Notes under the pieces: model-generated
Seen by the model: only the letters and a program-made list of their open reading frames with translations
What the model was told of the DNA's origin: nothing
Databases searched by the model: none
Translations under genes and position numbers: made by a program
In this document: in pieces, positions 1 to 64,000 of the stretch
How the letters are laid out: every line of letters begins with the position of its first letter
Position numbering within the stretch: the first letter of the stretch is position 1
From: Candidatus Delongbacteria bacterium
Lineage (GTDB): Bacteria; CAIWAD01
NCBI GenBank assembly: GCA_041675285.1
Contig: JBAYTZ010000014.1
Span: 22,891 to 86,890, forward strand
Length of the DNA stretch: 64,000 nucleotides
Reading direction: 5' to 3'

Positions 1-4
1 GTCC

Positions 5-3778: not shown

Positions 3779-3819
3779 GCGGGCGGACCGCCGCTGACAG
3801 CCCGCCCGCTGGAGACCCG

Positions 3820-13425: not shown

Positions 13426-14124
13426 ATGCTACCCACCAAACGCACCGATGCCCTCACCCCCCAGTCCGTCGCGGACTACTTGACCCTGGCCGCGGAAAAT
13501 GCCGCGCTGCCGGCGACGCTGGAGGCGTTCCTGGCCCTCCTCGGCCCGGAGGGAAAGGACAAGAATGAAGAACGCAAGGCGGCCCTGGCGACGGTCCTCC
13601 AGAAGTTGCAGACAGGGCATCCGGCGCGTGCCAGCATCCAGCTCTGGCTGCTGGTCGCCTATGCCCCCCTGCTCCGAGGGCTTGCCGGCCGCTATTCGCG
13701 AAATGGCAACGAGCAGGCGGATGTCGAGAGCACTGTCGTGGTCGCATTCCTGGAGACCATCCAAGGCACCCCTGAAGCGCGGCTGAAGGATGCCTTTCTG
13801 CAGAAGCGGGTCTTGGACGACACCAAGGACCGGGTCCGAGTTCACCTGGGTCTGCGAGACTACCAGCAAGACAACCGCATCGAGCTCGTGGCGGACGACG
13901 CAGTGCAGGAGGACCGCGCACCGGACGAGCGGGTGGATGGATACGAGTCGCTGCTGGCCCAGATCAATGAGCTGCCCATCGCCGCCAGCGACCGCGACCT
14001 CTTGGTGGGGATCTATGTCTACGGCTACAGCATGGCCGAGCTGGCCGAGAGGTGGCACATCCCCCACGACACCGTCAAGAAGCGCTACCAGCGGCTGCTG
14101 CGGCGCCTGAAGGAAAAACTCTGA
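13426..14124 (+). CDS. sigma-70 family (ECF-like) RNA polymerase sigma factor
   Basis: Region-2-like LWLLVAYAPLLRGLAGRYSR and region-4 HTH YSMAELAERWHIPHDTVKKRYQRLLRRLKE. 232 aa. Confidence 0.65.
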   Translation: MLPTKRTDALTPQSVADYLTLAAENAALPATLEAFLALLGPEGKDKNEERKAALATVLQKLQTGHPARASIQLWLLVAYAPLLRGLAGRYSRNGNEQADVESTVVVAFLETIQGTPEARLKDAFLQKRVLDDTKDRVRVHLGLRDYQQDNRIELVADDAVQEDRAPDERVDGYESLLAQINELPIAASDRDLLVGIYVYGYSMAELAERWHIPHDTVKKRYQRLLRRLKEKL

Positions 14125-37054: not shown

Positions 37055-37923
37055 TGCCCCGCAAGAAGCAGGATGCCGATCCGCCGACCCTGGGTCGCGG
37101 AGGAGAGATCGTCCTGTTCCAGGAAGGTGGCGTGGGGCGTCTGGAAGTCAGGCTGCAGGGGGAGACCCTCTGGCTGAGCCTGCAGCAGCTGGCCGATCTC
37201 TATCAGCGCGACAAGTCGGTCATTTCCCGCCATCTGCGAAGCATCCTCGCCACGGGGGAGTTGGAGCGTGAGGTAGTTGTTGCAAAAAACGCAACAACTG
37301 CCGCCGACGGCAAGACCTATCAGGTGGACTTCTACAACCTGGACATGATCATCTCCGTCGGTTACCGCGTTCACTCCTTGCGCGGCACCCAATTCCGCAT
37401 CTGGGCCACCCGCACCCTGAAGGACACTTTGGTGCGCGGCTACACGTTGAACGAGAGTCGCCTGCAAGCCCAGGTGGAACGCCTGGAGGGCCTGCTGGCC
37501 GCCGTCCAATTGGTGGGGCGCGTCGCCACGGAGCGCTCCCTGAGCAGCGGCGAGGCCAAGGGCCTGCTCAAGGTCGTGGGCGACTTCTCGCTGGCGCTGG
37601 ACCTGCTGGACCAGTATGACCACGGCCGCCTCTCTCTACGAAGCACGACGGCCAGCGCGGGCCGCGTCCTGGAAGAAACCCGCAGACGCAGGCCCGCGCC
37701 CCGCTGCGCCCTGGTGCTGGGCCGGGTGGACGCCAAGCGGACGCCGGACCGCGCCGCGCCGGTTCTTGCTGGCCGGGGCCTTTGGGCTGCCCGTCCTAAC
37801 CGTCCGCCAAGACGCCCAGCTGGCCACGGCTTTGGGGGTTGGATATGTCCCGTCCGCATCCAGCCGGGGGGCGCGGAAGACCTGGAAGCCGTGGCAAAGT
37901 GGATTGATGGAGGAAAACCGTGA
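37054..37923 (+). CDS. RhuM-family (virulence protein RhuM-like) protein; C-terminal ~90 aa atypical and possibly degenerate
   Basis: LFQEGGVGRLEVRLQGETLWLSLQQLADLYQRDKSVISRHLRSI...DFYNLDMIISVGYRVHSLRGTQFRIWATRTLKD is the RhuM signature. Distal part is R/P/G-rich. Start overlaps the upstream stop. Confidence 0.65.
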   Translation: MPRKKQDADPPTLGRGGEIVLFQEGGVGRLEVRLQGETLWLSLQQLADLYQRDKSVISRHLRSILATGELEREVVVAKNATTAADGKTYQVDFYNLDMIISVGYRVHSLRGTQFRIWATRTLKDTLVRGYTLNESRLQAQVERLEGLLAAVQLVGRVATERSLSSGEAKGLLKVVGDFSLALDLLDQYDHGRLSLRSTTASAGRVLEETRRRRPAPRCALVLGRVDAKRTPDRAAPVLAGRGLWAARPNRPPRRPAGHGFGGWICPVRIQPGGAEDLEAVAKWIDGGKP

Positions 37924-39203
37924 TGGTCGACAAGGGCTTTCCAGCCGGTTACGAGCCGCAGGGGAGCACTGAGGCTGCCGAGTGGTACCGCCTAGCCGCT
38001 GAGCAAGGGAATACAATGGCCCAGCGCAATCTGGGGGTCATGTACTACAACGGCGAGGGCGTGCTGCAAGACTACACAGAGGCTGTCAAGTGGTTTCGAC
38101 TAGCGGCTGAGCAGGGGTACGCGCCGGCTCAGTATAACCTGGGGGTTGCGTGCGCCAAGGGCCTGGGCGTGCCGCAGGACTACGTTGAGGCCGTCAAGTG
38201 GTACCGCCTGGCTGCTGAACATGGGAACGCAGGAGCCCAGTTAAATCTGGGATTCTTGTACCACAGCGGCGAGGGCGTGCCGCAGAACGGCGCTGAAGCC
38301 GTCAAGTGGTACCGCCTTGCGGCGGAGCAAGGCAATGTAAGTGCCCAGAACAACCTGGGAGTCATGTACAAGAGCGGCCAGGGTGTGCCGCAGGACTACA
38401 TTGAGGCCGTTAAGTGGTACCGCCTTGCGGCGGAGCAAGGACATGTAAGTGCCCAGAACAACCTGGGGGACATGTACAGTGGCGGCCAAGGCGTGCCGCA
38501 GGACTACGCAGAGGCCGCCAAGTGGTCCCGCCTTGCCGCGGAGCAGGGGTGCGCGCCGGCACAGTACAATCTAGGGGTTGCATGCGCCAAAGGCAGGGGC
38601 GTGCCGCATAACGACGCAGAGGCAGTCATGTGGTACCGCCTAGCCGCTGCGCAGGGGTACGCACCGGCTCAGTACAACATGGGAGTCATGTACGACGACG
38701 GCCGAGGCGTGCCGCAGGACTACGTTGAGGCTGCCAAATGGTACCGCCTAGCCGCTGAGCAGGGCCATGTAAGTGCCCAGAACAACTTGGGGGGCATATA
38801 CGGCGGCGGACAAGGCGTGCCGCAGGATGACGCAGAGGCTGCCAAGTGGTTCCGCCTAGCAGCGGAGCAAGGCCATGTAGGTTCCCAGTACAACCTGGGG
38901 GTTGCGTGCCACCTCGGCCAAGGCGTGCCTCAGAACTACGCGGAAGCAGCCAAGTGGTACCGCCTAGCCGCTGAGCATGGGTACGCACCGGCTCAGTACA
39001 ACCTGGGTGTCATGTACAACGACGGCCGAGGCGTGCCGCAGGACTATATCATGGCTCACCTGTGGTGGAACCTTGCTGCCACCAGCGGGGATGAGGACGC
39101 GGTGAGGGGTAGAGGCACTGTGGCTGGCAAGATGACCCCTGCCCAAATCGCAGAGGCGCAACGTCTCGCCCGCGAGTGGAAGCCCACACCGGAGAAGCCA
39201 TGA
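37923..39203 (+). CDS. Sel1-repeat (SLR/TPR-like) protein, ~11 tandem 36-aa repeats
   Basis: Repeating AEAVKWYRLAAEQG.A.AQ.NLG.MY..G.GVPQDY units. GGAGG RBS. Stop overlaps the methyltransferase start. Confidence 0.85.
   Translation: MVDKGFPAGYEPQGSTEAAEWYRLAAEQGNTMAQRNLGVMYYNGEGVLQDYTEAVKWFRLAAEQGYAPAQYNLGVACAKGLGVPQDYVEAVKWYRLAAEHGNAGAQLNLGFLYHSGEGVPQNGAEAVKWYRLAAEQGNVSAQNNLGVMYKSGQGVPQDYIEAVKWYRLAAEQGHVSAQNNLGDMYSGGQGVPQDYAEAAKWSRLAAEQGCAPAQYNLGVACAKGRGVPHNDAEAVMWYRLAAAQGYAPAQYNMGVMYDDGRGVPQDYVEAAKWYRLAAEQGHVSAQNNLGGIYGGGQGVPQDDAEAAKWFRLAAEQGHVGSQYNLGVACHLGQGVPQNYAEAAKWYRLAAEHGYAPAQYNLGVMYNDGRGVPQDYIMAHLWWNLAATSGDEDAVRGRGTVAGKMTPAQIAEAQRLAREWKPTPEKP
37960..39110 (+). repeat. DNA-level tandem repeat (period 108 bp) encoding the Sel1 repeats
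   Basis: Recurring ...gtggtaccgcct.gc.gc.gagca.gg... units visible in the sequence. Confidence 0.6.
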
Positions 39204-49599: not shown

Positions 49600-49723
49600 G
49601 GGGTCTCCGTGGTTGGGTGGCGGCAAGGCGGGATCGCAAGGTCCCGCCCGCGCATGTCTCTGGACATGAGTCTGCACTAGTCGGGTCCGAAAGTCAAGTC
49701 TCAACCCATTGAGAGTAAACGAG

Positions 49724-51310
49724 ATGGGCATCAAGCCTCCGCGGCCAGCCAAGCTCTCCTCCGACGAGATGGCCTTTGCCCAGATCCTCTTGGATCCGGT
49801 CGCGTTCGCCGCGGCCTTTCTGACTCAGCTGGATGGAGAGACCGCCGGGCAGCCGATGGCGCTGTGGCCCCACCAGCAGGAGGACCTGCGTGAGCCAGAC
49901 CTGCAGGTGGTCCACCAGGACGGCCGGGCGGTGGGCAAGACCGTGGACATCGTGGTTCAGGTCCTTCACTACGGCGTGACCGCCCAGAACGGGCGCATGC
50001 TGGTGACGGCGCCCAACGACGGCCACGTGAACAAGGTCATCGAGGAGGTGGAGGCCCACCTTCAAAACAGCGAGTTCCTGCTGGAGATGGTGGCCATCGA
50101 CCAGAATGGCCGGCACCGGATCACGCGCAAGCCCTATTACCAGATGACCTGGAAGAACGGCACGATCATCTACTTCCGCCCCGCCGGCCCCACGGGCAAG
50201 AGCGTGCGCGGCCTCCACTGCGATCGCGTGCTGGTGGACGAGGCCGCCTGGTACCCAGAGCCTGCCTGGCGGGCCCTGCGCCGGGTCTTGAACCGCGGCG
50301 GCCAGATGCGCTGCTACTCGAACCCCAATGGCCTGCGCAACACGACGTATTACCGGATTACCCAGAAGGGCAGCGGCTGGCGGGTATTCCACTGGCCCAG
50401 TTGGATCGTGCCTGGCTGGACGGAGGACGACACCGAGCGGGAAGCCCGGTTCTACGGCGGCCGCGACACGGCAGGTTTCCAGCACGAGGTGGTGGGCGAC
50501 CACGGCGCGCCGAGCTATGCGGCCTTCAACATCCGCCAATTCCAGGCCTGCCAGCGCAAGCTGGAAAAGGCATATAAGGTGATCCGCCTGGACGGCGAGG
50601 AGTTCGAAGCTCTGCAGAGCGTGGACGAGGCCATCGACCGCATGTACGGCCTGCTCGACCAGCTCGAAGAGAATCGCGGCACCTACTGGCTGGGCGGCGA
50701 CCTCGGCTACACGAACGACCCCAGCGAGCTCACCGTCTGGCTGGACGACGAGCGCGGCCGCCTGGTGCCCGTTCTGCGCGTCCACAACGAGCGGCTGCCC
50801 TACACCTACCAGGCGGCGCTGATCGCCATCCTCGACGACCACTTCGACTTCGCCGGCCTTGGCCTTGACGCTGGCTCCAACGGCCTGGCCGTGGAGCACA
50901 TCCTCACCACCGAGGACCGCTACTCGGGCCACCAGTTCGCCTACCGCGTGGAGACCTACGACTTCGGCGGCACGCTGACCACGGGCTACGATCCCCAGGG
51001 GCGGCCCAAGAACCAGCGCACCAAGGAGTACATGACCAGCCTGATCAATGGGCGGCTGGCGGCGCGCACCATCCTTTTCCCCGCCGGCGACGCGGACCCG
51101 GACTGGGAGGACCAGTTCTGCACGCAGACCTACTCGCAGAACCAAGCGGGTCGACTGATCTATTCCAAGGGCAACGACCACATCATCGACAGCGCGCGCT
51201 GCGCAGCCCTGAGAAAGGAGCGCGAGCTCCTGAAGCAATTGGTGGACGACAACTCCTCCAGCGAGGCTGAATTCGTCATGCCGCTGGTCACCGACAACGT
51301 CTTCGTCTAG
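49724..51310 (+). CDS. terL: phage terminase large subunit
   Basis: P-loop GRAVGKT near the N-terminus. ~530 aa with an ATPase N-terminal half and a nuclease-like C-terminal half (acidic residues DGEEF...DLGYTNDPSE). Position directly upstream of the portal. Confidence 0.7.
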   Translation: MGIKPPRPAKLSSDEMAFAQILLDPVAFAAAFLTQLDGETAGQPMALWPHQQEDLREPDLQVVHQDGRAVGKTVDIVVQVLHYGVTAQNGRMLVTAPNDGHVNKVIEEVEAHLQNSEFLLEMVAIDQNGRHRITRKPYYQMTWKNGTIIYFRPAGPTGKSVRGLHCDRVLVDEAAWYPEPAWRALRRVLNRGGQMRCYSNPNGLRNTTYYRITQKGSGWRVFHWPSWIVPGWTEDDTEREARFYGGRDTAGFQHEVVGDHGAPSYAAFNIRQFQACQRKLEKAYKVIRLDGEEFEALQSVDEAIDRMYGLLDQLEENRGTYWLGGDLGYTNDPSELTVWLDDERGRLVPVLRVHNERLPYTYQAALIAILDDHFDFAGLGLDAGSNGLAVEHILTTEDRYSGHQFAYRVETYDFGGTLTTGYDPQGRPKNQRTKEYMTSLINGRLAARTILFPAGDADPDWEDQFCTQTYSQNQAGRLIYSKGNDHIIDSARCAALRKERELLKQLVDDNSSSEAEFVMPLVTDNVFV

Positions 51311-51319: not shown

Positions 51320-52846
51320 ATGGGCTTGTTTGGCATCGGAACGCGTGCCCAGCTTGCGGCCGAAAGCGTCCACCACGTGGGAGGCGAGCTAGAGGCCCAG
51401 GCAGCCACGGTGGATCCGTTCGGCAGCGAGATGGCGGAGACGGGCATTCCCGCTGAGTGGCTGGATCGCGGCACGAAGGCATGGGAGTACTACCAGCAGG
51501 AGCCCATCGTCAACAACTGCATCAACGCCTGGCGCACGCTGGCCCTGGGCGAGGACTTCACGCTGATCGCCTCCAGCACCGAGCTGCAGAAGGACGTGGA
51601 CGCACTGAAGGAGCGGCTGGGCCTCAAGCGCTGGTTGAAGGACCAGCTCCTGCAACTGTTGACGAAGGGCGAGGCCGCGGCCTTCAAAGAGTACGGTGGC
51701 GAGAAGAAGGGCGAGACCGAGGACGGCCAGCCGCAGTACAAGGACTTCTCCCAGGTGAAGGCCCTGAACCCGCTCCTCCTGGACGTGGTCGTGGAGGACG
51801 GCAAGACGACCAAGGTGACGTCCTTCAAGCTGGATGCATCCAAGCAGCGCGTGGAGGTGGGTCCGGTCGCGATTGATCAGTTCCGGCGCTGGATGTGGGA
51901 CGCGCCTGGCTTCGCCGAGCACGGCACCAGCATGGTGCTACCAGCATTCGAGTCCATCGAGCTTCTGCGGGACTACCGGCGCGCCGAGCGCGCCATCGCC
52001 AAACGCTGGGCCATGCCCATCCGCCTAATCAAGGTGGGCGGGCAGTTCGGCAAGACTGTGGTGATGCCCAAGGCCTCAATGCTGAAGGACATCAAGAAGG
52101 TCTTTGACTCCATGAGCGCCCAACAGGGGGCGGTGGTGCCGTTCTACGTGACCATCGACACCTACGGCGCTGAGGGTGAGGCGTTGAAGGTCGAAGAGAA
52201 GGCCAAGGAGACCAAGGGCGACATCATCGTCGCCATGGGCTTCACACGGGCGTTGGTCAGTGGCGACGGGGCCAATTTCTCCACCGCCAGCCTGGGCTTC
52301 GCCAAGGTCCAGCTGATGCTCTCGGACATCCGCGACATGGCGCGCGAGATGCTGCGCTGGGTGCTGGACGACTACCTGGCCATGCGCGGGCAGGAGGGCG
52401 AGAGCGTCCACATCGCCTTCCAGGAGATCGACCTCTCCGCCGGCGCCGACCAGCGCAAGGTGCTGGTGGATCTCTACGACCGCGGGCTGATCAGCGTGCG
52501 CAGCCTGCAGGCGCTGATGGGCCTTTCGCCGGACATCGAGCACGCCCAGATCGGGCGCGAGACCAAGCAGGTGATCGCCCCGCTCTCACCGGGCGACATC
52601 GTGGGCCTGGCCCAGCAGGAGATGCTCAGCCTCGACCAGGTCTTCTACCTGCTCAACCTGGCGGAGCGGCTGAAGGGGGCGCCGGAGGCTGCGCCAGCGC
52701 CAGCGCCGCCTGAGAACGGCGCACCGCAGACCGGCGACGTGGCCGGCCTCTACCAGCAGGTGGACCAGCTCATCCGCGCCCGGGCCGTGCTGGTGGCCCG
52801 CGAACGCGTACGAGAGCTGGCCGCGGATTCCACGCCAACCGCCTGA
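51320..52846 (+). CDS. phage portal protein
   Basis: 508 aa. Located between terminase and MuF-like gene. Composition consistent with portal. Stop overlaps the next start. Confidence 0.55.
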   Translation: MGLFGIGTRAQLAAESVHHVGGELEAQAATVDPFGSEMAETGIPAEWLDRGTKAWEYYQQEPIVNNCINAWRTLALGEDFTLIASSTELQKDVDALKERLGLKRWLKDQLLQLLTKGEAAAFKEYGGEKKGETEDGQPQYKDFSQVKALNPLLLDVVVEDGKTTKVTSFKLDASKQRVEVGPVAIDQFRRWMWDAPGFAEHGTSMVLPAFESIELLRDYRRAERAIAKRWAMPIRLIKVGGQFGKTVVMPKASMLKDIKKVFDSMSAQQGAVVPFYVTIDTYGAEGEALKVEEKAKETKGDIIVAMGFTRALVSGDGANFSTASLGFAKVQLMLSDIRDMAREMLRWVLDDYLAMRGQEGESVHIAFQEIDLSAGADQRKVLVDLYDRGLISVRSLQALMGLSPDIEHAQIGRETKQVIAPLSPGDIVGLAQQEMLSLDQVFYLLNLAERLKGAPEAAPAPAPPENGAPQTGDVAGLYQQVDQLIRARAVLVARERVRELAADSTPTA

Positions 52847-55800
52847 TGCCACGCGCAGCCTGCAGCTGCGGCAGCTGGCACGCGCCCCTGCCCCGAGGAG
52901 AGCTCCACCTGGAGGTGGAGGCGCTCCTCCTGCCCCTGGGCAGCCGGGCTATCAGCTCCCACGCACTCACCCAGCGCCAGGCCATCGAGCAGGCCACGGC
53001 CCAGAGCCTGGCTCAGGCCGGGGCCTACTCGGACGAGGTGCTGGCCGGCAGCCTGAAGGCCCTGGACCGCGCGGCCAAGGACGTGAAGGCTCATGTGTTG
53101 GCGCTGGGTGACCTGTCACAGTTCGGTCCCGACGCCCAGCCGGGCAAGGCCGTGCAGCTGACTCGGCTGAAGGCCCTGGACAAGCACCTGGCCCAGACTG
53201 CCGCCCAGCTCAAGAAGGACCTGTCGCTGGTCCATCAGGACCTGACGGCCACGGCGACCAAGGCCGGCATCGAGGGCAAGCTGGCCCAGCTGGGCGCCAT
53301 GAAGGTGGGCGGCTACCAGGCCCTGGATCAGGCGGGCCGGGAGGCCTTGGCTGAGGCGGCCTTCTCCCTCGTTCCCACCGACGCCCTGGACTTCCTCTCG
53401 AACTATCAGCTGCAGCTTCTGGGCAAGCTTTCAGACGACCTGGTGGCCGGCATCAAGGGCGCCGTGCAGGTGGGCATTGCCCAGGGCGAAGGTCCGGCCA
53501 AAATCGCCCGGCGTATTGGCGGCATCGTCAAGGACCCGGACGAGTTCCGCCAGGTGGGAAAGACGGTCTTCAAGACCGTGCAGCAGCGCGCCGAACTCAT
53601 CGCGCGTAGCGAGGTGATGCGCGCCTACAACCAGGGCGCGCTGAAGTTCGAAGCGCAAGTGGGGATCAAGCGCGTGCGCTGGCTGACGGCCGGCGACGAG
53701 CGCACCTGCCCCGACTGCGGACCGCTGGACGGCAAGGAAACCAGCCTGGTAGACCTGCCGAGCCAGCCGCTACACCCCGCTTGCCGTTGCACGCATGTGC
53801 CGGCGGACATCTCCCAACTCATGACCAAGGATGTCTTGGAGTCTCAGTTGGCGGGGATGACTCTGGAGGACGCCGCTGTCAAGGAGGCGCTGAAGGACGG
53901 GGATTACAGCAAGCTCACCCAAGTCCAGCTGCGCGAGGTGGCCAAGGAGAAGGGCGTGTCCATCGCCCGCACCAAGGCCGACCGCATCGCCCTCTTGTCG
54001 AAGGCCGCGGGCCAGAGCGAGGAGTGGCTGGCTGGGCACACGCCCGCCGAGCTGGAGGCTTGGTTCAAGCAGTACAAGGTCGGTGCGCTCAAGAGCAAGG
54101 ACGAGCTGGTGGCGGCCCTGCACAAGGCCGACCACGCCACGGACGCGGCCAAGGCAGCAGCCCTCAAACAAGCCGAGGAAGCGGCCAAGCAGGCCAAGCA
54201 GGCGGCCGAGGACGCCGCTGCGAAACTGGCCAAGACGAACCAGGCCGTGGCGGACTTCCATAGCGAGCTGGGCAAGCTGAAGGCCCTGGAGACGGATCCG
54301 GGCACGTTCGGCGAGTACCACGCCCAGATCGATGTAATGGTCCAGCACCTCTTCAAGACGAAGGAGCTGCTGGGCCCCCAGCAACTGGCCGAGCTGGAAC
54401 AGTACGTGCTTACGTCGCACCACGCCTTCGCCAGCGCGGTGGAGGCCTTGCCCCAGGCCGTCCGGCGGGATATCCTCAAGGCGGCGAAGGTCAAGAACTT
54501 CCAGTGGTTCACGAAGGACGAGTCGGTCGCTTATCTGACGGACGTGACGGCCCAGACCAAGCTGGCTGAGCAGGTCGCGGCCAAGGTGGCGGCCGCCAAG
54601 GACGCGGCAAAGCTCAAGAAGGCTACGCCGCCGTCCAAGCCCACACCACCCGTGCCACAGCCCACGGCCGCGCCCGCCAGCCCCGCGGTCCAGGCCCGCA
54701 CGGCCGATGATGCCTGGCAGGAGCTCAAGGCCCGGAACCCCTTCCGCTTCCACAGCGACGCCAGCGAGCTGGGCGGCGTCCACACGAAGTACTTCTACCT
54801 GGATGAGGCCGGCGACAAATGGCTGTTCAAGCCCATCGCCGAGGACTTCCGCGCCTGGGGCGACGAGGTGGCCTACCTCATCCAGCGCGAGATCGACCCG
54901 GAAGCCATCGAGGTGCGCTGCATCGAGCTGAAGGACCTGCACGGGAAGCGGCGCCTGGGCTCGATCCAAAAGATGAAGAAGGGGCTCAGGGATCCCGCGA
55001 ACTTCGAGAAGATGGATGTGGCGGCCATTGACTCTGCGGAGCTGGTGCAGATCCAGCACGAGCAGGTGGTGGACTGGCTCATCTCCAACCACGATGGCCA
55101 CGCGGGCCAGTTCCTGCGCGCCCAGGACGGCCGGGTTTACGGTATCGACAAGGGGCAGCTCTACAAGTACTTCGGCCGCGACACGCTGTCCGTGGACTAC
55201 GCACCCAACGCCGGCGGGCGTTTCGACGAGCCGCTCTACAACAAGCTCCTGCGCACCCACCGGGATGGGAAGATCAAGCTGGACCTCCAAGCCACGGAGG
55301 AACGCATCCGCCGGGTGGAGGCGATCTCCGACGCGGCCTTCCGCGAGATGCTCATGCCCTATGCCGGCCGCCGCTTCGCCGGCCAGCCCGGCGCGCTGGA
55401 GGATTTCCTACGCGCCGCGGTGGATCGCAAGAACGCCATCCGGGCGGACTTCGAGCGCCTCTACAGCCAGATCGAATCAGCGCGCACAGGCAAGCAGGTG
55501 ACCTTCCGCTTCGGTGCCGCTGTGGCGGAACCGGCTCTTGCGAAGACTGTGGACGACGGGCTGGCCTGGGCGCGGGGCAGCCGCATCGACCTGCCAGAAG
55601 AAGTGAAGACCATCCGGGAATCCGGCTGGCAAGGGCGCTCCCTGGCGGTGGACAGGGGCGACATCGAGGACCAGAACGTGCTGGTGCGGGAGGTGGCGGG
55701 CCTGAGCGGCGAGCGGCAGACCGTGCTGCAGCTGCGGCTGCGGCCCGAGGCGGACAAGCGTGTGGTGAAGGTCTTCAAGGCCAATGTGGTGGGCGAGATT

Positions 55801-57285
55801 CCCAAGGAACTGGTGCACGAGGATGAGTTCTGGGATACGATCCTGGCTGCGGCCAAGACGGTCAACACGCACAAGGGCGATTTGGGTTACAACACGGGCA
55901 AGCTCAGCGCGGCCGAGGAGCTTCGTCCCCGGCTGCAGCGCTTGGCCAAGGGCGGCAACCCGCTGGAGCAGGCGATGGCGCGCCAGTACCTGGACGTGCT
56001 GGACGCGATTGCTCAGGCCGTGGATGCCACGCGGCAGGGCATGTCCACGGGCATGCCTCTGATCAAGCCCTACGCGCCCAGCGCGGCGGACCTGAAGGCG
56101 CTGCGGCAGGGGATGAAGGCCGCGCCCAAGACAAGCGGCCTGCGCGTGTCCACCAGCCCGGTGTGGACCGAGGACCGCCTGGCCACGCGCGGCCACGGCC
56201 TGGCCGTGGAGGCGGAGAACGTGCCCCTGTCGCGTTGGCATTCTGGTATCCACGACAAGCTGGTAGAGTACCACGCAGACCTGGGCGATGGGGTCGAGGT
56301 CGTCTACAAGCCCTGGCAGGGCACGGGCCGAGCGGAGGGCAAGAGCTACGCCCTGCAGGGCCGCATGTCGGTGCGCGTGCGCGAGGGGACCAGCGAGGCC
56401 ACTGTGGCACGGGCGATGGACAAGCTGAAAGTCCTGGGTCTGGACGCCGCGCCTGCCTCGGCCGTGGACGAGGAGCTCATGTACCTGCAGAAGGTGGCCT
56501 ATGTCGCCAAGGTGGACCAGACCCCGGCCTTTCTGGCGGCGGCGGAGGAAGCGCGCAAGGCAGGCTCGGGCGAGGCGGCCGTACGCGTCTGGCGCGAGGC
56601 CTGGAGCCGGCACCTGGGCGTCAAGGACGTGACCAAGCTCCCCGACTACAATCCCGCCGGCATCCACCAGGCCAGCACCACGGGCGCCAAGGCCGGCGCC
56701 GGCATGCGCGTGCAGTACCGCTTTGATATCCCGCGCGAAGAGCTGGCCAGGGAGCTGGAGGGTTACACGCTCATGCACCACCTGACCAAGGGCACGGTGG
56801 AGGACTTTCTGGATGCTGTGCTGCCCACCAACCGTGCCTTCGTGCCCACGGCCGACCGATTCGGCGTGGGCGTGCCGCTGGGCGGCATGAGCCCAACCCA
56901 GGACCTGAACACAGGTGGTGCCAGCTATTTCTTCACGCGGATCATCAAGGGCGCCAGCCCCTATCCCAACAGCATCCGCTTCAAGGTGGACATGCTACGG
57001 CGCGCGGACGCCATCAGCTACAGCAGCGACAAGTACGGCAAGGTGGTGGGCGATTTCGTGCGCGAAAACCGAATCTCGGACATTCCAACCTGGAAGCGAA
57101 TGCCAAACTACGGGGGCAACGAGACGATCTTCAAGGGCGCGGTCCCACTGCTGGAGCACTTGGACGCCATCGTGGTGGACAGTCAGGCCAGGCGGACGCG
57201 AGTGCTGGCCTTGTTCAAGAAGCACGGGATCACGGCGCTGCCCGACGGGCGGGGCATCGATGACGCGGTGAGGGTGAACGGATGA
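52846..57285 (+). CDS. phage head-morphogenesis (Mu F / SPP1 gp7-like) domain fused to a ~1100-aa extension (Ala/Lys coiled coil + divergent kinase-like domain + C-terminal domain)
   Basis: MuF signature ARSEVMRAYNQGALKFEAQVGIKRVRWLTAGDERTCPDCGPLDGKE (aa ~250-300). Coiled coil AAKAAALKQAEEAAKQAKQAAEDAAAKLAK. Segment WLISNHDGHAGQF...YGIDKGQ resembles a kinase catalytic loop plus DFG-like motif. Confidence 0.7.
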   Translation: MPRAACSCGSWHAPLPRGELHLEVEALLLPLGSRAISSHALTQRQAIEQATAQSLAQAGAYSDEVLAGSLKALDRAAKDVKAHVLALGDLSQFGPDAQPGKAVQLTRLKALDKHLAQTAAQLKKDLSLVHQDLTATATKAGIEGKLAQLGAMKVGGYQALDQAGREALAEAAFSLVPTDALDFLSNYQLQLLGKLSDDLVAGIKGAVQVGIAQGEGPAKIARRIGGIVKDPDEFRQVGKTVFKTVQQRAELIARSEVMRAYNQGALKFEAQVGIKRVRWLTAGDERTCPDCGPLDGKETSLVDLPSQPLHPACRCTHVPADISQLMTKDVLESQLAGMTLEDAAVKEALKDGDYSKLTQVQLREVAKEKGVSIARTKADRIALLSKAAGQSEEWLAGHTPAELEAWFKQYKVGALKSKDELVAALHKADHATDAAKAAALKQAEEAAKQAKQAAEDAAAKLAKTNQAVADFHSELGKLKALETDPGTFGEYHAQIDVMVQHLFKTKELLGPQQLAELEQYVLTSHHAFASAVEALPQAVRRDILKAAKVKNFQWFTKDESVAYLTDVTAQTKLAEQVAAKVAAAKDAAKLKKATPPSKPTPPVPQPTAAPASPAVQARTADDAWQELKARNPFRFHSDASELGGVHTKYFYLDEAGDKWLFKPIAEDFRAWGDEVAYLIQREIDPEAIEVRCIELKDLHGKRRLGSIQKMKKGLRDPANFEKMDVAAIDSAELVQIQHEQVVDWLISNHDGHAGQFLRAQDGRVYGIDKGQLYKYFGRDTLSVDYAPNAGGRFDEPLYNKLLRTHRDGKIKLDLQATEERIRRVEAISDAAFREMLMPYAGRRFAGQPGALEDFLRAAVDRKNAIRADFERLYSQIESARTGKQVTFRFGAAVAEPALAKTVDDGLAWARGSRIDLPEEVKTIRESGWQGRSLAVDRGDIEDQNVLVREVAGLSGERQTVLQLRLRPEADKRVVKVFKANVVGEIPKELVHEDEFWDTILAAAKTVNTHKGDLGYNTGKLSAAEELRPRLQRLAKGGNPLEQAMARQYLDVLDAIAQAVDATRQGMSTGMPLIKPYAPSAADLKALRQGMKAAPKTSGLRVSTSPVWTEDRLATRGHGLAVEAENVPLSRWHSGIHDKLVEYHADLGDGVEVVYKPWQGTGRAEGKSYALQGRMSVRVREGTSEATVARAMDKLKVLGLDAAPASAVDEELMYLQKVAYVAKVDQTPAFLAAAEEARKAGSGEAAVRVWREAWSRHLGVKDVTKLPDYNPAGIHQASTTGAKAGAGMRVQYRFDIPREELARELEGYTLMHHLTKGTVEDFLDAVLPTNRAFVPTADRFGVGVPLGGMSPTQDLNTGGASYFFTRIIKGASPYPNSIRFKVDMLRRADAISYSSDKYGKVVGDFVRENRISDIPTWKRMPNYGGNETIFKGAVPLLEHLDAIVVDSQARRTRVLALFKKHGITALPDGRGIDDAVRVNG

Positions 57286-57791
57286 GCGAGGACATGCGCG
57301 AGCAGCAGCGGCGAGTGTTCCAGGTCTATCTGGACCGTCTGCACGAGGACCCGGGCTGCGAGGTGGGCGTCACCTGGGTGGCGGACCGGGACACGCTGGT
57401 GTCCTTCTCAGCCGGCATGCGCGTCCTGTCTGCGACGCCACTATTCAACAGGGCGACAGGCGAGATCGAGCGCTGGCGCCACTGGCTGCTCTTCGCCGAG
57501 ATGGGCATCTTGGACACCTTCGGCGGCGGCCACCCCGTGCACTGCTTCGAATGTGAATTGCTGGAGCAGGATGCCCTGCACGTCAGGCTGCGGGAGGTAG
57601 GCGGCACCTACGAGTTCCTCATCTGCCACAACGACCCGCACGACGACGACGAGCGCCAGGCCGCGGTGTATCACGATTGGGCGCAGGCCGTGAAGGAGCT
57701 AGGCGGCGAGCCAGCGCTGCAGGCGCTGCTTGACCGCCAGGCGGAGCAGTGGACGCAGACGCTGCGGACTACGGGGGAGATGAAGCCATGA
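57282..57791 (+). CDS. hypothetical protein; candidate immunity protein for the toxin-like C-terminus of the MuF fusion
   Basis: ATGA-coupled directly downstream of the MuF-fusion gene. 169 aa, acidic. Confidence 0.4.
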   Translation: MSEDMREQQRRVFQVYLDRLHEDPGCEVGVTWVADRDTLVSFSAGMRVLSATPLFNRATGEIERWRHWLLFAEMGILDTFGGGHPVHCFECELLEQDALHVRLREVGGTYEFLICHNDPHDDDERQAAVYHDWAQAVKELGGEPALQALLDRQAEQWTQTLRTTGEMKP

Positions 57792-58204
57792 GGGTGCACT
57801 GGTTCTACGTCTTCGACCTGGAGGCTGAAGGACGCAAGAAACCCATCGGCGCGTGGATTCTCCAGGACGGTGTGCTCGATTACGTCTTCGACCCCGCCTA
57901 CCCGGACGACGAGGCGATCCCATCAGACCTCATCAATCGCATGCTAGAGGTTGGCGAAAAGGTGCTTGGCCTGGAAGGTTTGAGATACTGGCGAGAGCAC
58001 GTGGGCTATACCCATAGCGCTAGCCAGATCAAGGAAGAAGACGTGACGGATTACACCATGTGGTTCTGGGAAAGGCAGGCCGCTGTGACCGAGGGCTGTA
58101 GTTTGAGACGCGGAGGGGGGCTCGGGGCAGGCGCTGGCCAACTTCCGACGAAGAGCGCAATTGCCCAGACTGAGACCCGTTGGACGGCAATGAGTTCGAC
58201 TTAG
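57788..58204 (+). CDS. hypothetical protein
   Basis: ATGA-coupled. 138 aa. Confidence 0.35.
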   Translation: MRVHWFYVFDLEAEGRKKPIGAWILQDGVLDYVFDPAYPDDEAIPSDLINRMLEVGEKVLGLEGLRYWREHVGYTHSASQIKEEDVTDYTMWFWERQAAVTEGCSLRRGGGLGAGAGQLPTKSAIAQTETRWTAMSST

Positions 58205-58406
58205 CCGACCTGCCTTGTTTGCCTCCGCATCCACGAGCCCGTCGTCCTCAAGGTTACCCTCTTTAGGGACATACTGGAAGATCACCATGCACGCCAGGCA
58301 TTGGAGAACTTGGAGATCCAGAAAGCGCTAGAGCATCGATGACGAGTTGCAGATTCTTCTTCAGTGTAAAGAGTATTAAGTCAGAGTCTGCGCTAAATGG
58401 GTTAAA

Positions 58407-58437
58407 GTGTCAATATGATGTCAATTAGTAGTGTCAA
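58407..58437. repeat. three (G/A)TGTCAA direct repeats spaced ~one helical turn (TTGACA x3 on the minus strand) at the GC-content boundary of the low-GC island
   Basis: GTGTCAAtatgATGTCAAttagtaGTGTCAA seen directly. Confidence 0.4.
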
Positions 58438-58545
58438 CTAATTTAGTATCGGAGTTTAGTTGTCTGATATTATCACGCTTATATTTCAAGAATACACAAA
58501 TCTAGATGACTGTATGTGCAAATACGGCTGAACTTAATATTATGC

Positions 58546-59169
58546 TCACTTCTTGTCAGTGATGGCCGAGATGCCTTTGATCTGAAACCAGCTCTTTGAA
58601 GGTAGAAGCGGGGAATAGAATCTATTACCGCCAACCCTTGTAGCTGTCTGAATCAAGGCATCCATTGCGGCACCTAGTCCATCCTCCTTGTAGGCTGTTG
58701 ATCGGCTTCCATTTGTAAGGCAAGGTATACTAGGATGTTTTATGTCTGAAAGGTATGCATCGAAGGTATCACGTGCCACAGCCATGCCAAAAATGCGCCA
58801 AGCATACTTCCTTCCCAGATAGTGACCATCAGGTGCGCTATATTGAATTCGATCATCTGATTTTTGCGTTTCGAGAGCTCTACATTCCTCCCCGAGCAAG
58901 CGTGCGACGTAGTGACTCTTGTGCGGATCTACTTCGTCTGCCTTTGCAGTAGCCGATACATCAACCCAGTTCAAGCCGTTTTTAACAGTAAATCCTATAT
59001 TGTATCTCTGTCCTTCCATGAGAATTGGTTCATGATTCGCAATGAATTGGTACACCGTGGTTGTGTTTTTCGGAGAAAAGCTGTGTAAAAACTTGCCATT
59101 CGGATAGGGAATAATATTGTAGTTTGTGACAATCAAGACTGGCGTAGTATGTAACTTTCGAGACTTCAT
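58546..59169 (-). CDS. hypothetical protein (low GC) downstream of hamB
   Basis: Start MKSRKL with GAGGAG RBS (rc ATG 59167-59169). The track ORF extends further upstream in frame to 59325. No motif assigned. Confidence 0.45.
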   Translation of the reverse strand: MKSRKLHTTPVLIVTNYNIIPYPNGKFLHSFSPKNTTTVYQFIANHEPILMEGQRYNIGFTVKNGLNWVDVSATAKADEVDPHKSHYVARLLGEECRALETQKSDDRIQYSAPDGHYLGRKYAWRIFGMAVARDTFDAYLSDIKHPSIPCLTNGSRSTAYKEDGLGAAMDALIQTATRVGGNRFYSPLLPSKSWFQIKGISAITDKK

Positions 59170-59360
59170 CGGTCTGGTCTCCTCAAAGTGATTAGTAGGC
59201 TTGAGATCCTTTGGGTTGGCTCGAAGCTCTTGCGGGGCCACTCCCGGACGTGAAAGCCGTCGCCATTTCCTCCCAAAGAGAGTTTTGGAGCGAGTAATCA
59301 ACAATCCTTGACTATACTCAATCATATACCATGCCGAAACATACTTGGCGGGGTTTTTAG

Positions 59361-61664
59361 CTATTCAGGCAAATACCACTCGATTATTTCTCGTACATGA
59401 TCCGGAGCTTCACTTATGGCGTTTCGGAAGACGATATTCTCCACTGTGATCGAATCCACATATTCTGCTATCTCTTCAATGCGGTCTGGTGCGAATCCAT
59501 ATCGCATGAGCAGGATATGTTTGGCGTTGTTTGTTCCATATTTGAGAAGTTCAATCATACGATCTGCGCGATCATCAATAGTCCGCTCACTGTAGATCTT
59601 GAAGGCCGCTACGAAGGTATCTGAGAGACAGAAGGAAATAACTTGATCGAGATAGTCATAAGTGTCAAACAACACCGCATCATAGCTAACTACATTGGCC
59701 GGCGTGCCCTCAACGAATAGAGGGAATCGTCGCACTAGTGTCTTGTTTGGCAGTTGGCTAGCTGCTTGAGAGAACTCCGCCTGCCCTTGTCTTCCGAGAT
59801 TTCTTCTTGAAATGTGACTGTACCGAATTCCAACTATTTCTTTGAATGCTCGTCCTTGTATGGTGTGCAAAAATATCTGAATGGCTTGGCTAAACACCGC
59901 AACTTCGCCTTCGACGAGACACCGCCCTAGGGCGGCTTCGTAGATTTTTCTATAACAATCGCAAACATTGTGTCTGATTTCGGCCTTGTCCTCCCCCCCA
60001 ATGCTTGCTCTTATACCACGGGCATCTGCAAAAACGCTGTCGAGAATTTGACTGGCACTTTCTAGGACGATTGCGGTTGATAGTCGCTCAACTCGCGACA
60101 TCGGCAAGTTCTTATCCTCATCAAAGGTGTTTTCGCGAATAGAATTCAAGTATTCACCAGTGTCACTGTCTTCTGAGTAGTCGCCAGTCTCAATTATTGA
60201 TGCCTCATCTAGTCTCAAGGGGAAGTTCATCCGGTCAATGAAGAGCTTTGGATTTGTAGTGTACACATAACCGAAATCAAACTCGCTGCCACTCGTGAGT
60301 CTGCCAGCCCGACCAATTAGATTCTTGAAGGCCAGTGCTCGCTCCTTCTCTCTACCTGGCAGCCATGGATTCTTGAGCCATACTACGTCAAATGGCATGT
60401 TCACACCTTGGGCAAGAGTGCTTGTTGCGAAGCACATGACCGCATGGCCTCCACGAATGAAATCCTCTATGAGAAAACGAACCTCGAGTGGAACAGATCC
60501 ATGGTGAATGACGACTCCCTTTCTCAGTAGGGTTATCATGTCTGAACGATGCTCATTCTCGTTTGCACCGATGATGTCGACTATCCTACTTACAATTCTA
60601 AGAGCATCTGGCTCCTCAATTGGAGGCAGATCTGTAATGTGATCAGAGAAGTCTGTTAGATAGCTTCCATCATAGATTGATGCTTTAGATACGTAGACCA
60701 ATATGGAATGCTGCGGGGAAAGACAGAATGTCGGGAAGTCACATTCGAACTGCACGCAGTTTTTCAGATGATGCCCGTTGGTCAAGTAAGGTGAGAAGCA
60801 GTAATCTCGGCCGTTCGAGTGTCTGAAGACGCAAATCCTACCGACAGATCCGTGATCATATGAATGAGCGTATCCCCTTTCGAAATCGATTTCATGTTTG
60901 CTGAATTGAGCCTCAGGGTTGATGACAAAGGGGTGGGCAAAAACCAACTTTGCACGCGGGAAGTGCTTGATGATCCTTCGAACCGTGACATCAAACAGTA
61001 CACCCCGCGTATCATCTTCCGAGATTTGTGCTTCATCGAGAAAGAAGGTACCCACCGACTGCAACTCGCGAGATAGTCTGAACAGATCTTTCGTGCGTTC
61101 AGGGGTTAGGACGAAAATTCTGCGGGGTGCCCGAACTGTGAAAATTTGTTCAACAAAAGGACAAATCATCACATTTTTGTCGCTGCGAAAGCGATCTCTG
61201 AAAGCCCCCATGTACTCGGCGATCAGCGCTCGTGATGGCACAATGACAACGGCATCTTGCAGGTCCCGAGCTATATACTCGCGGACTGCGTAGGACTTCC
61301 CAGAACTTGTTGGCGCAGAGATTGATACATACTGCATCGAATCGATGGACCGGCTGACACTTGCCTGAATAGGTGTTAGACGCTTGCCATATTCTTGTTC
61401 ATGGGTTCTTCCGAAACCAGACATAAGAAATGAATAGAGATTGTTGTCTTCTTGTACTTTGTGAAATAGTCCTAACGCCGCCAGAATTTGACCCTCGACT
61501 CTTGTGAAGGCAAGGGAGTGGTACCGTTTATAGTAGGCGAGCGCTTCAAGGTCAGTTAGTGAGGTTGGTCCTTCACGATGCAGTCTGTCCAACAAGACCG
61601 CCAACTCCGTCGTTACATTCACGCTTGCGAGTATAGATCTAAGCGCCATGGCTGACACCGACAA
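59361..61664 (-). CDS. hamB: Hachiman HamB-like SF2 (DExH-type) helicase
   Basis: ISAPTSSGKSYAV (motif I), FFLDEAQI (motif II), ATSTLAQGVNMP (V), NLIGRAGRL (VI). 767 aa. Overlaps and follows a DUF1837-like PD-(D/E)xK gene. Low GC (~42%). Confidence 0.7.
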   Translation of the reverse strand: MSVSAMALRSILASVNVTTELAVLLDRLHREGPTSLTDLEALAYYKRYHSLAFTRVEGQILAALGLFHKVQEDNNLYSFLMSGFGRTHEQEYGKRLTPIQASVSRSIDSMQYVSISAPTSSGKSYAVREYIARDLQDAVVIVPSRALIAEYMGAFRDRFRSDKNVMICPFVEQIFTVRAPRRIFVLTPERTKDLFRLSRELQSVGTFFLDEAQISEDDTRGVLFDVTVRRIIKHFPRAKLVFAHPFVINPEAQFSKHEIDFERGYAHSYDHGSVGRICVFRHSNGRDYCFSPYLTNGHHLKNCVQFECDFPTFCLSPQHSILVYVSKASIYDGSYLTDFSDHITDLPPIEEPDALRIVSRIVDIIGANENEHRSDMITLLRKGVVIHHGSVPLEVRFLIEDFIRGGHAVMCFATSTLAQGVNMPFDVVWLKNPWLPGREKERALAFKNLIGRAGRLTSGSEFDFGYVYTTNPKLFIDRMNFPLRLDEASIIETGDYSEDSDTGEYLNSIRENTFDEDKNLPMSRVERLSTAIVLESASQILDSVFADARGIRASIGGEDKAEIRHNVCDCYRKIYEAALGRCLVEGEVAVFSQAIQIFLHTIQGRAFKEIVGIRYSHISRRNLGRQGQAEFSQAASQLPNKTLVRRFPLFVEGTPANVVSYDAVLFDTYDYLDQVISFCLSDTFVAAFKIYSERTIDDRADRMIELLKYGTNNAKHILLMRYGFAPDRIEEIAEYVDSITVENIVFRNAISEAPDHVREIIEWYLPE

Positions 61665-62376
61665 CTATGATCGCATGAGAGTTGTTGACCCGGGCAACCT
61701 GACGTGCTTGCTCAACTGCATGTCGAAGTACATTGAGAGGTCGATGCGCGTCCAGCGAGAATGCAATAACGACCCCCCATGTGTCCCTATCAAGTTCATC
61801 CATTCCTTCTGGGGCAAGGAGTTGAAGATGAGGAGTGTCTCGAAGATGCTTCTCTTCTTCAATGAAGCGATCGATCTGTTCGATTGCGTCACTGTATGGA
61901 TTGCTGTTTGAGGAGTACTTAGCTTCTCCGAAGTGGATGACGTGAGCTGGGCATATGGTGTGAAAGTCAAACCCTTCGTTCCCGCTGATCTGTGCCTTCC
62001 AAAGCTCCGCAATTGGGAGTGCCGTGTGGGAGAACACGAGTTCAATGGCCTTCGATGCGCCCATTGAAACCATCAACTCGCCGAACGCGCTGTTCACTTT
62101 ATTCGTGTCTGCTGTCTGGCGAAACAGGTCAGCGAGGCGCGTTGCGGTTTCAGCCACTGTGTGCCGATATGCACGCTGCGATCTCGGATCCAAGTCCATG
62201 ATCCAGGATGTGTCAAGGATGTCTCTAGTTAAGTACGTCGCCATTCTCTCGACGTCCGACACTTTGACATGGCAGATGAGAATGTGGGGCTGCCCGTGGT
62301 CTCCTTCGACAGCGGCCATCTCACAACCCATTTCCACTACAGGATTTATCGCCAGATACTGGTATCCGTCAGTCAC
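61639..62376 (-). CDS. hamA: Hachiman HamA-like protein (DUF1837-like PD-(D/E)xK nuclease fold)
   Basis: 245 aa. GFDFHTICPAHVIHFGEAKY fits D...ExK. 26-nt overlap with the helicase gene in the classic hamA-then-hamB order. Confidence 0.6.
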   Translation of the reverse strand: MTDGYQYLAINPVVEMGCEMAAVEGDHGQPHILICHVKVSDVERMATYLTRDILDTSWIMDLDPRSQRAYRHTVAETATRLADLFRQTADTNKVNSAFGELMVSMGASKAIELVFSHTALPIAELWKAQISGNEGFDFHTICPAHVIHFGEAKYSSNSNPYSDAIEQIDRFIEEEKHLRDTPHLQLLAPEGMDELDRDTWGVVIAFSLDAHRPLNVLRHAVEQARQVARVNNSHAIIVVGVSHGA

Positions 62377-62948
62377 GATCTCACCCGTTACGATTCTGGG
62401 TTAATCCTCTACCGAGCCACATTCAGTTTCACTCAATTCTGCGCCGCTTGATAATCATTGTCGGCCCATCGTGAGCTTCAACTGCGTTGTGCTTGCCATT
62501 GTGCCTAAACTCAAATGGCCATTGAATGCAAGTTCCGTGACAGACGTAGAGTCGGCTGCATACTGGCTTCGCTTCGGGTCCGATCTGTGTACAAAGTGTG
62601 CTTCACCCGCTCATGCGAACCCAACCGCCTTATTGCTCCAGTCCTCGACAGCAGCCTCAAGTATACACTTCGATTGTACATCTTCGAAATCTGAGTAGCT
62701 GGGCATCGTATCTCAGTTCCATTGCCTGTCGCTATGCGATGTCCATTGCCTTTTCATTGGAAAGATATTCAGAGGATAGCAAGTCGAAGGCTTGATTACC
62801 ACTCAGAAATACTAAAGAATGCAGAATTGCTTTTTCAAGCACCATCGGCCTATGCACTATCACCAACAAGTCTTGACATGCCCTCTCGGACAGGAGATCG
62901 TATCCGCGAATCCATGAACTCGCGGGGACGAGCATGCCTTTTCTAACC

Positions 62949-64000
62949 GTCGAAGCTGCCCTCTTCCCTGAGCTGACCGCCCAAGGTGCCGGCGCGCCCC
63001 AGAGCGTCGTCCAGTACATCGGGAACAAGCGCAAGCTACTAGACTGGATCCGCGAGCAGATCCCCGAGGGCGTGAAGACCGTGGTCGATGCCTTCGCTGG
63101 CGGCGGAAGCGTGAGCTACATGCTCAAGCGCGAGGGCTTCGCCGTCCATTCCAACGACAGCCTGCACTGGCCCCATCACATCGCCCGGGCCGTGGTGGTC
63201 AACCAGAGCGAGATCGTGACGGACGAGGAGATTGAGGCCCTCTGTCAGCCCAACCCCAAGGCCGGCACCTTCGTCCGGGACAACTACGCCGGCAAGTTCT
63301 GGAAGCCCGAGATCCATGGCGTCATCGACGAGGTGCGCGAGAACGTTGACGCCCTGAAGGGCTATAAGCGCGACCTCGCCCTAGCCGCCCTGGGCGCTAC
63401 CATGCTTTCGGCCCGCGGCTGGTTTCCCCAGTTCACCACCAGCAAGGTCAGCGAGGATGGATACTCGCCCGAGCAGTTCTACAAGCGTCTGGGCGAGGTC
63501 ATTCGGCGTCTCAACTCCATGGTCTTGGAGGGGCCCGCCTGCACGGCCCAGCGCTTGGACGTGCGCGAGTTCTTGCCCAAAGTGGATGCAGATCTGGCTT
63601 ACTTCGACCCCCCTTATGTGACTGAATTCAGCGCGGCCAACTACAGCGCCAACTACCACGTCGTCGACGCGGTGATGGTCAAGGGCGAGGGCCGCACTCC
63701 CAACGCCGACAGTGTCACACGGATGGAAAAGACCCAGGGCGACCTGACCAAGGCCAACATCCTGGAGTTCTTCCAAGAGGTCTTCGGGGCGTCCGAGCAC
63801 ATCCCCAACTGGCTCTTGTCCTACCGCGACCACAGCTACCCCAGCGAAGCCGAAATGCAGGAGCTCTTCGTGAAGGCCGGACGCGAGTTCCGGTTGGAGA
63901 CGAAGGACTTCTCCTACGGCAGCCTGGCCGGCAAGCGGCGGAATGAAGAGCCGGCCAAGGCCAAGGAGTACCTGTTCGTGGGCACGGCCAAGACGGCCGA
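62949..64000 (+). CDS. Dam-type (D12 class) N6-adenine DNA methyltransferase, 3'-partial at the window end
   Basis: YIGNKRKLLDWI N-terminal motif, FAGGGSV (motif I), AYFDPPYV (motif IV DPPY). High-GC gene starts exactly where the low-GC island ends. Confidence 0.8.

Follow-up and report, generated by a model that had tools for sequence, protein, structure and literature searches.

In the Hachiman defence system of Escherichia coli, the helicase HamB keeps the nuclease HamA inactive on intact DNA, and an end of single-stranded DNA (ssDNA) or DNA damage frees HamA (Tuck et al., 2024, PMC12278908). Hachiman type II has a third gene, HamC, a DUF3223 protein with an NTF2-like fold (Payne et al., 2021, PMC8565338), which accompanies only 3.8% of systems, on their upstream or downstream side (PMC8565338). 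A further Hachiman-type system, AbpAB, is triggered by phage SSB or by DNA damage (PMC10732053, PMC11914072). Our study reports on a ~4.8-kb block that carries a Hachiman-like hamA-hamB pair and an additional gene, p207, within a 64,000-nucleotide stretch of DNA from Candidatus Delongbacteria bacterium (GenBank assembly GCA_041675285.1, contig JBAYTZ010000014.1, forward-strand positions 22,891 to 86,890; this whole stretch is referred to as the window, and positions are counted from its first letter). We consider it highly probable that a temperate phage acquired this GC-poor, opposite-strand block as a moron, made up of a complete, divergent Hachiman system and a separately mobile p207 module.

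Compared with the type I Hachiman complex of E. coli ECOR31 (PDB 8VX9/8VXY; PMC12278908), the HamA of the block is ~9% identical to the solved HamA and is missed by PF08878, and its HamB has 762 residues whereas the known HamB has 1174; the subtype is a discrete HamA clade, carried here by a temperate phage. AbpAB of E. coli (PDB 8ZUE) differs in that AbpA has 531 residues with extra domains, and its sequence similarity to the block is undetectable. The PADLOC candidate PDC-M23 is a HamAB-like pair, and two of its loci (L050 and L104) also have a p207 homologue directly downstream. Like p207, HamC is a facultative extra gene, which flanks a minority of hamAB operons on the upstream or downstream side; p207 differs from it in having an oligonucleotide/oligosaccharide-binding (OB) fold and another domain rather than an NTF2-like fold, and in accompanying Lamassu and occurring alone as well. 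Defence genes travel as integron cassettes and prophage morons. Against that background, p207 has attC-type repeats in two loci (L019 and L043), and the block, on the opposite strand and deviant in GC content, is inserted between phage modules.

An acquired block in a temperate phage

The block is an acquired moron in a prophage. The evidence for acquisition is an empty site in two sister phages, L058 and L059 (IMG/VR): their colinearity with the window breaks off after 58054 and resumes at 62940, and just 145 nt separate the two points in these phages. These insertion-free phages were found with the methyltransferase as query (91% identity in L058, 85% in L059); searches with the 151-aa open reading frame (ORF) and with the C-terminus of the head protein were unsuccessful. 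They confirm that the insertion lies between phage genes and a Dam methyltransferase, as the initial annotation had placed it. The sharp limits at ~58330 and 62940 proposed in that annotation have to be moved: alignment to L058 and L059 puts the left junction at ~58055-58100 (with ~40 nt of uncertainty), where similarity fades within the 3' end of the 151-aa ORF, and the right junction at ~62850-62868 (with ~20 nt of uncertainty), so that ~250 nt of acquired DNA precede the GC drop at 58330, and the acquired DNA stops ~70 nt short of 62940. The GC step at 58330 is not a junction, because the GC-rich segment 58055-58330 (GC 0.59) is without a counterpart in the relatives. The block as a whole has a GC content of 0.478 against 0.61-0.63 in the phage backbone, that is ~47-48% rather than the ~42% first estimated, and its only truly AT-rich stretch is 58331-58545 (GC 0.35). 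An independent Logan assembly, L060, is 100% identical over 55659-63137 and spans both junctions, which argues against a chimeric join, with the proviso that L060 may share the sample of origin.

Table 1. Positions of the acquired block, its genes and the surrounding phage features in the window.
Feature	Position	Strand	Remarks
Glycosyltransferase, host-like, GT4/GT1	627-2546		precedes integrase at left end
Tyrosine integrase	5184-6353	+	Pfam Phage_integrase E 5.5e-24, and Arm-DNA-bind_3
Large terminase	49709-51310		phage gene
Portal	51320-52846		phage gene
Head-morphogenesis fusion protein, 1479 aa	52846-57285		SPP1 gp7-like minor-head domain at residues ~100-380
151-aa phage ORF	57749-58204	+	3' end remodelled by insertion
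Acquired block, ~4.8 kb	58055-62868		limits from colinearity with insertion-free relatives by blastn and alignment
Three RTGTCAA copies (TTGACAY on minus strand)	58407, 58418, 58431; span 58407-58437	+	spacings 11 and 13 nt
p207, 207-aa orphan gene	58546-59169	-	N-terminal OB fold, conserved C-terminal alpha/beta domain; independent module
Spacer hamB-p207, 191 nt	59170-59360		no homology to any other locus
hamB, SF2 Ski2-like helicase	59361-61649	-	762 aa from ATG 61649; mechanical ORF 767 aa, 59361-61664, from TTG 61664
hamA, 245-aa PD-(D/E)xK nuclease	61639-62376	-	divergent compact clade; GTG start
Region upstream of hamA within block, 492 nt	62377-62868		presumed promoter/leader
Native phage promoter-like region upstream of methyltransferase	62869-62933	+	conserved in L058 and L059
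Dam-like N6-adenine methyltransferase, phage backbone	62934-64000, runs off window	+	phrog_27806 E 4e-80; TIGR00571 dam E 8e-9

The insertion has also altered its neighbour: the ancestral stop of the 151-aa ORF is gone at the junction, and ~35 extra codons are read into acquired DNA by comparison with its relatives.

Searches with the whole block (megablast and blastn) against INPHARED phages and PLSDB plasmids gave zero matches, and HamA and p207 had no match in phages by tblastn. Rfam and tRNA scans of the block were empty, and a scan for promoters and terminators returned counts not above those of shuffled sequence. The region upstream of hamA contains only ORFs of up to 75 aa, with no regulator or frameshifted remnant and no homology to other hamAB loci, and a promoter-like site on its minus strand (62838-62809) is no better than chance.

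The initial annotation described the insertion as bounded by (G/A)TGTCAA iterons, from which one might suppose that these repeats mark the ends of a discrete transposable or integrative element. Three RTGTCAA copies do stand towards the left end, and a single inverted copy towards the right. The trio occurs as described, in the most AT-rich stretch of the block, 110-140 nt downstream of the p207 stop, and thus ~300 nt inside the left junction. It is only marginally non-random: of 2000 shuffles of the block that preserve composition, 99 (~5%) contain some 6-mer three times in 35 nt, and the window-wide RTGTCAA count of 16 is within chance (11 +/- 3.6). Nor is the trio conserved downstream of p207 in other loci. 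The right-hand copy, TTGACAT (62873-62879), falls inside a motif, TCTTGACAT..CCTCTC..GAGATCGTATCC, which is present in the window, L058 and L059, and it is native backbone because both insertion-free phages conserve the surrounding motif. Flanking direct repeats, target-site duplications and terminal inverted repeats were sought, and none rose above chance level, the repeats found having 16-25 nt and 70-88% identity; no ORF within the block encodes a transposase or recombinase. A discrete element delimited by iterons is thus very unlikely, and the block is better described as a moron. On the minus strand the repeats of the trio read TTGACAY, a -35 consensus; that they are a remnant of a donor promoter or operator is possible but unsupported.

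The native element itself is followed by a short GC-rich inverted repeat (CGCG...CGCGGG), and element and repeat together lie at 62869-62933 in the window, 8925-9000 in L058 and 4280-4354 in L059. Conserved upstream of a Dam-like methyltransferase, the element may be a regulated late or early promoter.

A divergent, compact Hachiman pair

The block contains three co-oriented ORFs on the minus strand, of 245, 767 and 207 aa. The second of these is unambiguously HamB. Its best PADLOC match is the HamB1 model PDLC00186 (E 5e-51), with scores of up to 172 bits and matches to more than 20 further HamB models, and it also matches phrog_6819 over its full length (E 2e-98) and the solved HamB chain 8vx9_B in the PDB (E 1e-12). 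The helicase motifs are intact: PTSSGKS (motif I), DEAQ at 210, TSTL at 414 and GRAGR at 451 (motif VI). A match to PDC-M23B (E 5e-20) is far exceeded by those to the HamB1 models. The best PDB sequence match of the protein is 9wh1_B (853 aa, E 5e-21 across the whole helicase core), which was deposited as 'DNA polymerase theta (helicase domain only)'; this chain scores above the one named HamB and might serve as a closer template for its structure.

The generic DEAD domain that is all Pfam reports, the PHROG label 'Holliday junction branch migration helicase' and weak NCBIfam matches to Hel308 (E 1e-11 to 1e-13) would also fit a housekeeping or phage replication helicase (Lhr, Hel308 or Ski2-like) beside an unrelated nuclease, the pair having no part in defence. 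The Hel308 matches score 43-48 bits, far under the curated cut-offs of 887-1216 and below the scores of the HamB models, which speaks against membership of such a family, the alternative that the initial annotation had raised. The same pair stands in defence-island contexts elsewhere, its partner protein has a HamA fold, and the block is missing from sister phages that own replication helicases and a primase. We regard a housekeeping role as extremely improbable, and retain the assignment to HamB.

The 245-aa protein is HamA on the grounds of fold, catalytic motif and conserved synteny, and is barely detectable as such from sequence. It has the HamA fold, and its catalytic motif, D137, E151 and K153 (GFDFHT...FGEAKYS), is invariant in 28 close and 48 distant relatives, even at 20-30% identity; the D-ExK residues correspond to E138/K140 of E. 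coli HamA. When these relatives were scanned singly, HamA models were the sole recurrent family (at least eight PADLOC HamA models), with PF08878 matches in 2/28 and 4/48 (best E 1e-5); the close relative P0016 carries a precomputed PF08878 match. Several results weigh against the assignment. The protein matches PADLOC HamA1 only at E 0.012, albeit in the matching region, it has no Pfam match at E<0.1 and none to PDB sequences by profile search, and Foldseek returned nothing significant. There was likewise no match in NCBIfam or PHROGs. The DUF1837 homology by which the initial annotation had proposed to recognise the protein does not appear in Pfam at normal thresholds, and it is the fold that resolves the case. 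The family is sizeable, with 337 clusters in a 90%-identity database and ~240 representatives at 50% identity, all of ~230-250 aa.

The hamA and hamB genes overlap by 26 nt if hamB is read from its TTG start, and by 11 nt, as in relatives, if it is read from ATG 61649. The pair recurs in L002, L003, L004-6, L013, L077, L103, L119 and L143. In L003 it has a type I restriction-modification locus as its neighbour, in L004-6 it belongs to an island of Vibrio harveyi adjacent to smpB, and L143 is a viral contig; L013, among the nearest relatives, is 73-78% identical. The hamA-then-hamB order with overlapping genes and the Hachiman-like nature of the pair, both of which had been proposed at the outset, are thus borne out, with HamB recognised unambiguously and HamA by its fold, motif and synteny. 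The recurrent matches to HamA models alone, the invariant motif and the recurring hamA-hamB pair lead us to conclude that this is a divergent, compact Hachiman subtype which standard models would probably miss.

By analogy with E. coli HamAB, we infer a model for the activity of the pair. HamB would hold HamA inactive while scanning intact double-stranded DNA; a free ssDNA end or damaged DNA of a superinfecting phage would enter the helicase, and ATP hydrolysis would then release or activate HamA. The freed nuclease could degrade all DNA, so that the infection is aborted and the lysogen population protected.

A small OB-fold protein downstream of hamB

The extra co-oriented gene downstream of hamB, noted in the initial annotation, is present and encodes 207 aa. 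A GAGGAG Shine-Dalgarno sequence precedes its ATG at MKSR; a 259-aa ORF over the same gene was rejected as an over-extension, as more than 100 homologues all start at MKSR. The N-terminal domain of p207 has the five-stranded barrel of an OB fold, and the protein consists of this single OB fused to a conserved domain of ~130 aa. The OB fold probably binds nucleic acid. Neither p207 nor a 44%-identical homologue (from L038) has a match in Pfam, PADLOC, NCBIfam, PHROG or PDB sequences. p207 was also considered as HamC and rejected, having no DUF3223 match in Pfam or PADLOC. It differs from SSB, PriB and the N-terminal domain of RecO in lacking sequence similarity to them, in joining a single OB to an extra domain, in its MKSR and AITDKK termini, and in that its gene is not in a replication or repair context.

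The p207 family comprises 396 clusters; among the members listed, none has a precomputed Pfam domain, and nearly all are named 'hypothetical protein'. The family is strongly conserved: sequence identity is 60-83% across Pseudomonas, Aeromonas, Acidovorax, Xanthomonas, Ralstonia, Vibrio, Shewanella and Chitinophagaceae, and the conserved features are the MKSRxLxT N-terminus, GxYxGxKYAWR, HPxxxCxT, SxAY and the AITDKK C-terminus. An identical 207-aa protein, P0121, is attributed by one source to a 'Candidatus Delongbacteria' metagenome-assembled genome.

Two modules in one block

In the block, nucleotide homology to other loci ends at the coding sequences of hamAB (62344-59368) and of p207 (59169-58548), and both flanks match nothing; in the closest hamAB relatives, unrelated genes stand downstream of hamB. 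Because DNA homology is confined to each coding sequence and the hamAB relatives carry other genes downstream, the block is, on these comparisons, a mosaic in which hamAB and p207 are separate modules, each mobile on its own. The single three-gene unit implied by the initial annotation dissolves accordingly, as homology stops at each coding sequence and the closest hamAB relatives are without p207. Two genes near related pairs, a 208-aa gene upstream of hamA in L003 and a 259-aa gene downstream of hamB in L013, were examined as possible p207 homologues and are both unrelated to it.

Evidence that p207 moves by itself comes from other loci. It lies in integron cassette arrays in L019, with six GTCTAAC...GTTAGAC repeats of which two flank the gene, and in L043, with repeats like those of Vibrio cholerae (VCR-like) on both sides. 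We took as attC imperfect palindromes of the form RYYYAAC...GTTRRRY around an ORF in a cassette array; none is recognisable in the window or in most other p207 loci. With a strict regular-expression scan for attC downstream of p207 no locus scored, though L019, L027 and L034 have core-site pairs at the stop codon, and the cassette status of p207 rests on the repeat families of L019 and L043. Five IMG/VR contigs that lack hamAB contain the gene too, as do an 8.1-kb MOBQ plasmid from Acinetobacter and a plasmid of Edwardsiella piscicida (L061; NZ_CP016445.2, 3164 bp) with only three genes: rep, a 147-aa hypothetical gene and the p207-family gene, which makes up a large share of the cargo of this minimal replicon.

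p207 homologues are also found within a Pseudomonas mobile element, next to Abi_alpha, and behind a pair formed by an AAA ATPase and an S8 peptidase. In L009-L012, L069 and L078, which come from Ralstonia and soil metagenomes, this pair (382 and 738 aa) lies directly upstream of p207, on the margin of a prophage-like element that has Terminase_4 nearby, and the layout is near-identical across several samples. In the Pseudomonas sp. HT11 locus (L001, 9233-15769), a Toprim/DUF927 mobile element carries a p207 homologue and a 1254-aa protein, then a ParA-like ATPase and SIR2. The 1254-aa protein has no Pfam or PADLOC match, and a similar large orphan (1237 aa, with 344 aa) precedes p207 in L017; these large orphans may be uncharacterised defence genes.

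Association of p207 with Hachiman and Lamassu

To describe the surroundings of p207, loci from one genome per species, metagenome loci and the window were pooled and collapsed at 97% p207 identity into 105 groups, and association counts were taken over the 79 whose flank reaches 3 kb or more on one side. In 12 of the 79, a HamB-type helicase lies within 1.5 kb of p207 and is accompanied by a HamA-like protein; these loci cover four subtypes and every relative orientation. The subtype of the window is represented by the window itself and L077 (both A-B-p207), L103 (convergent) and L119 (divergent); the HamA2/HamB2 subtype (E 1e-124 and 1e-255) by L038 (A-B-p207), L107 and L140 (p207-A-B); a PDC-M23-like subtype by L050 and L104; and a subtype of ~300-aa and ~837-aa proteins by L111, L132 and L108. 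Lamassu LmuB adjoins p207 in 6/79 (L023, L029, L046, L072, L112 and L035, the last at 2.3 kb). Thus ~23% of the p207 loci with context lie beside Hachiman or Lamassu, and ~77% beside neither. In the species-genome set, the recurrent immediate neighbours are LmuB, HamA/HamB, GajA and ABC-3C MC5, with AbiV and AbiTii also present, and no restriction-modification family is among them. As the orientation varies and both p207 subgroups are involved, we take the association to have arisen repeatedly and independently. Hachiman and Lamassu both respond to ssDNA or DNA ends.

From these data we propose, tentatively and as one possibility, that the p207 family is a hitherto unrecognised OB-fold companion of two systems, Hachiman (in at least four subtypes) and Lamassu. 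As a sensor or adaptor, or as a safety catch that keeps these systems from activating themselves, it might bind ssDNA and so set the threshold of the trigger; it would also work without them, spread as an integron cassette and as the cargo of small plasmids. Two points count against such a role: no fold was identified for the C-terminal domain, and the association with Hachiman and Lamassu could be a general effect of defence islands. In broader terms, p207 most likely acts either as a single-gene defence factor or as an ssDNA-binding modulator of DNA-end-sensing nuclease-NTPase systems.

One may ask whether the block encodes a Hachiman variant with three obligate components, in which p207 would be an integral third subunit and functional analogue of HamC. 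p207 homologues lie 40-200 nt from hamAB-type pairs in the 12 non-redundant loci of the four subtypes, L077 keeps the same A-B-p207 order though its HamAB is only ~50% identical, and HamC is likewise sparse among Hachiman systems. An obligate subunit is nevertheless hard to reconcile with the nearest hamAB relatives, which lack p207 (L013 at 73-78%, L003, L002, L143 and the Vibrio loci L004-6), with the large majority of p207 loci in which neither system is found, with the lone integron cassette and the three-gene plasmid, with the variable orientation to hamAB (convergent, divergent, upstream and downstream) or with the 191-nt non-homologous spacer between hamB and p207 in the window. We consider this arrangement quite unlikely; read from its distribution, p207 is a facultative companion of Hachiman and Lamassu that also travels alone, and not a core Hachiman subunit.

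A different role would be that of a safety or anti-defence factor, which masks the ssDNA or DNA ends of its own carrier from Hachiman or Lamassu during prophage induction, plasmid replication or host repair. The OB fold, the position beside Hachiman and Lamassu in particular, both of them set off by ssDNA or DNA ends, the place of p207 as main cargo of a 3.1-kb plasmid and its presence in phages without hamAB would all suit such a role, and there are precedents both for neighbours that damp the fitness cost of Hachiman (Pez-Ham, PMC13064477) and for a phage SSB as the trigger of the Hachiman-like AbpAB (PMC10732053). The argument is purely inferential; the strong conservation of the C-terminal domain and of the termini points to a function beyond passively coating ssDNA, and most members of the family have no Hachiman or Lamassu nearby. 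A dedicated masking factor is therefore unlikely, and we favour the wider description of p207 as a single-gene defence factor or modulator.

Phage setting of the window

The window is a temperate phage or prophage of high GC content (0.61-0.66), a status assigned because of the tyrosine integrase. Helicases and a primase follow the integrase on the plus strand. In 1-6353, where the glycosyltransferase is followed by the integrase, the window spans a prophage end, and an attachment site should be found nearby; no tRNA gene is present anywhere in the window. The early prophage region encodes a DUF5677 protein and a small sigma-70 region 4 protein (11820-12704 and 13426-14124), and a 427-aa Sel1-repeat protein with ~10 repeats (37920-39203; Pfam E 1e-121) lies amid large uncharacterised phage genes. 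The head-morphogenesis protein extends ~1100 aa beyond its gp7-like domain and could be a candidate large ejected or polyvalent protein.

Implications

The Hachiman part of the block is a known system in a new variant form, in a common kind of location, the prophage moron. A HamA clade of ~240 representatives (at 50% identity) falls under the thresholds of Pfam and PADLOC, and tools that need both HamA and HamB probably undercount Hachiman, including its phage-borne forms. The sister phages with and without the block form a natural pair, in which the effect of a prophage Hachiman on the lysogen, and the escape of the phage from its own DNA clearing at induction, can be compared. The part most worth following up is p207 and its recurrent adjacency to Hachiman and Lamassu. 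Genes of this family are short (~0.6 kb) and widely transferred, their sequence is extremely conserved, and their adjacency to these two systems is non-random; p207 is thus a testable candidate for a new single-gene defence or for a regulator of DNA-end sensors, and as such it bears on how these systems avoid autoimmunity.

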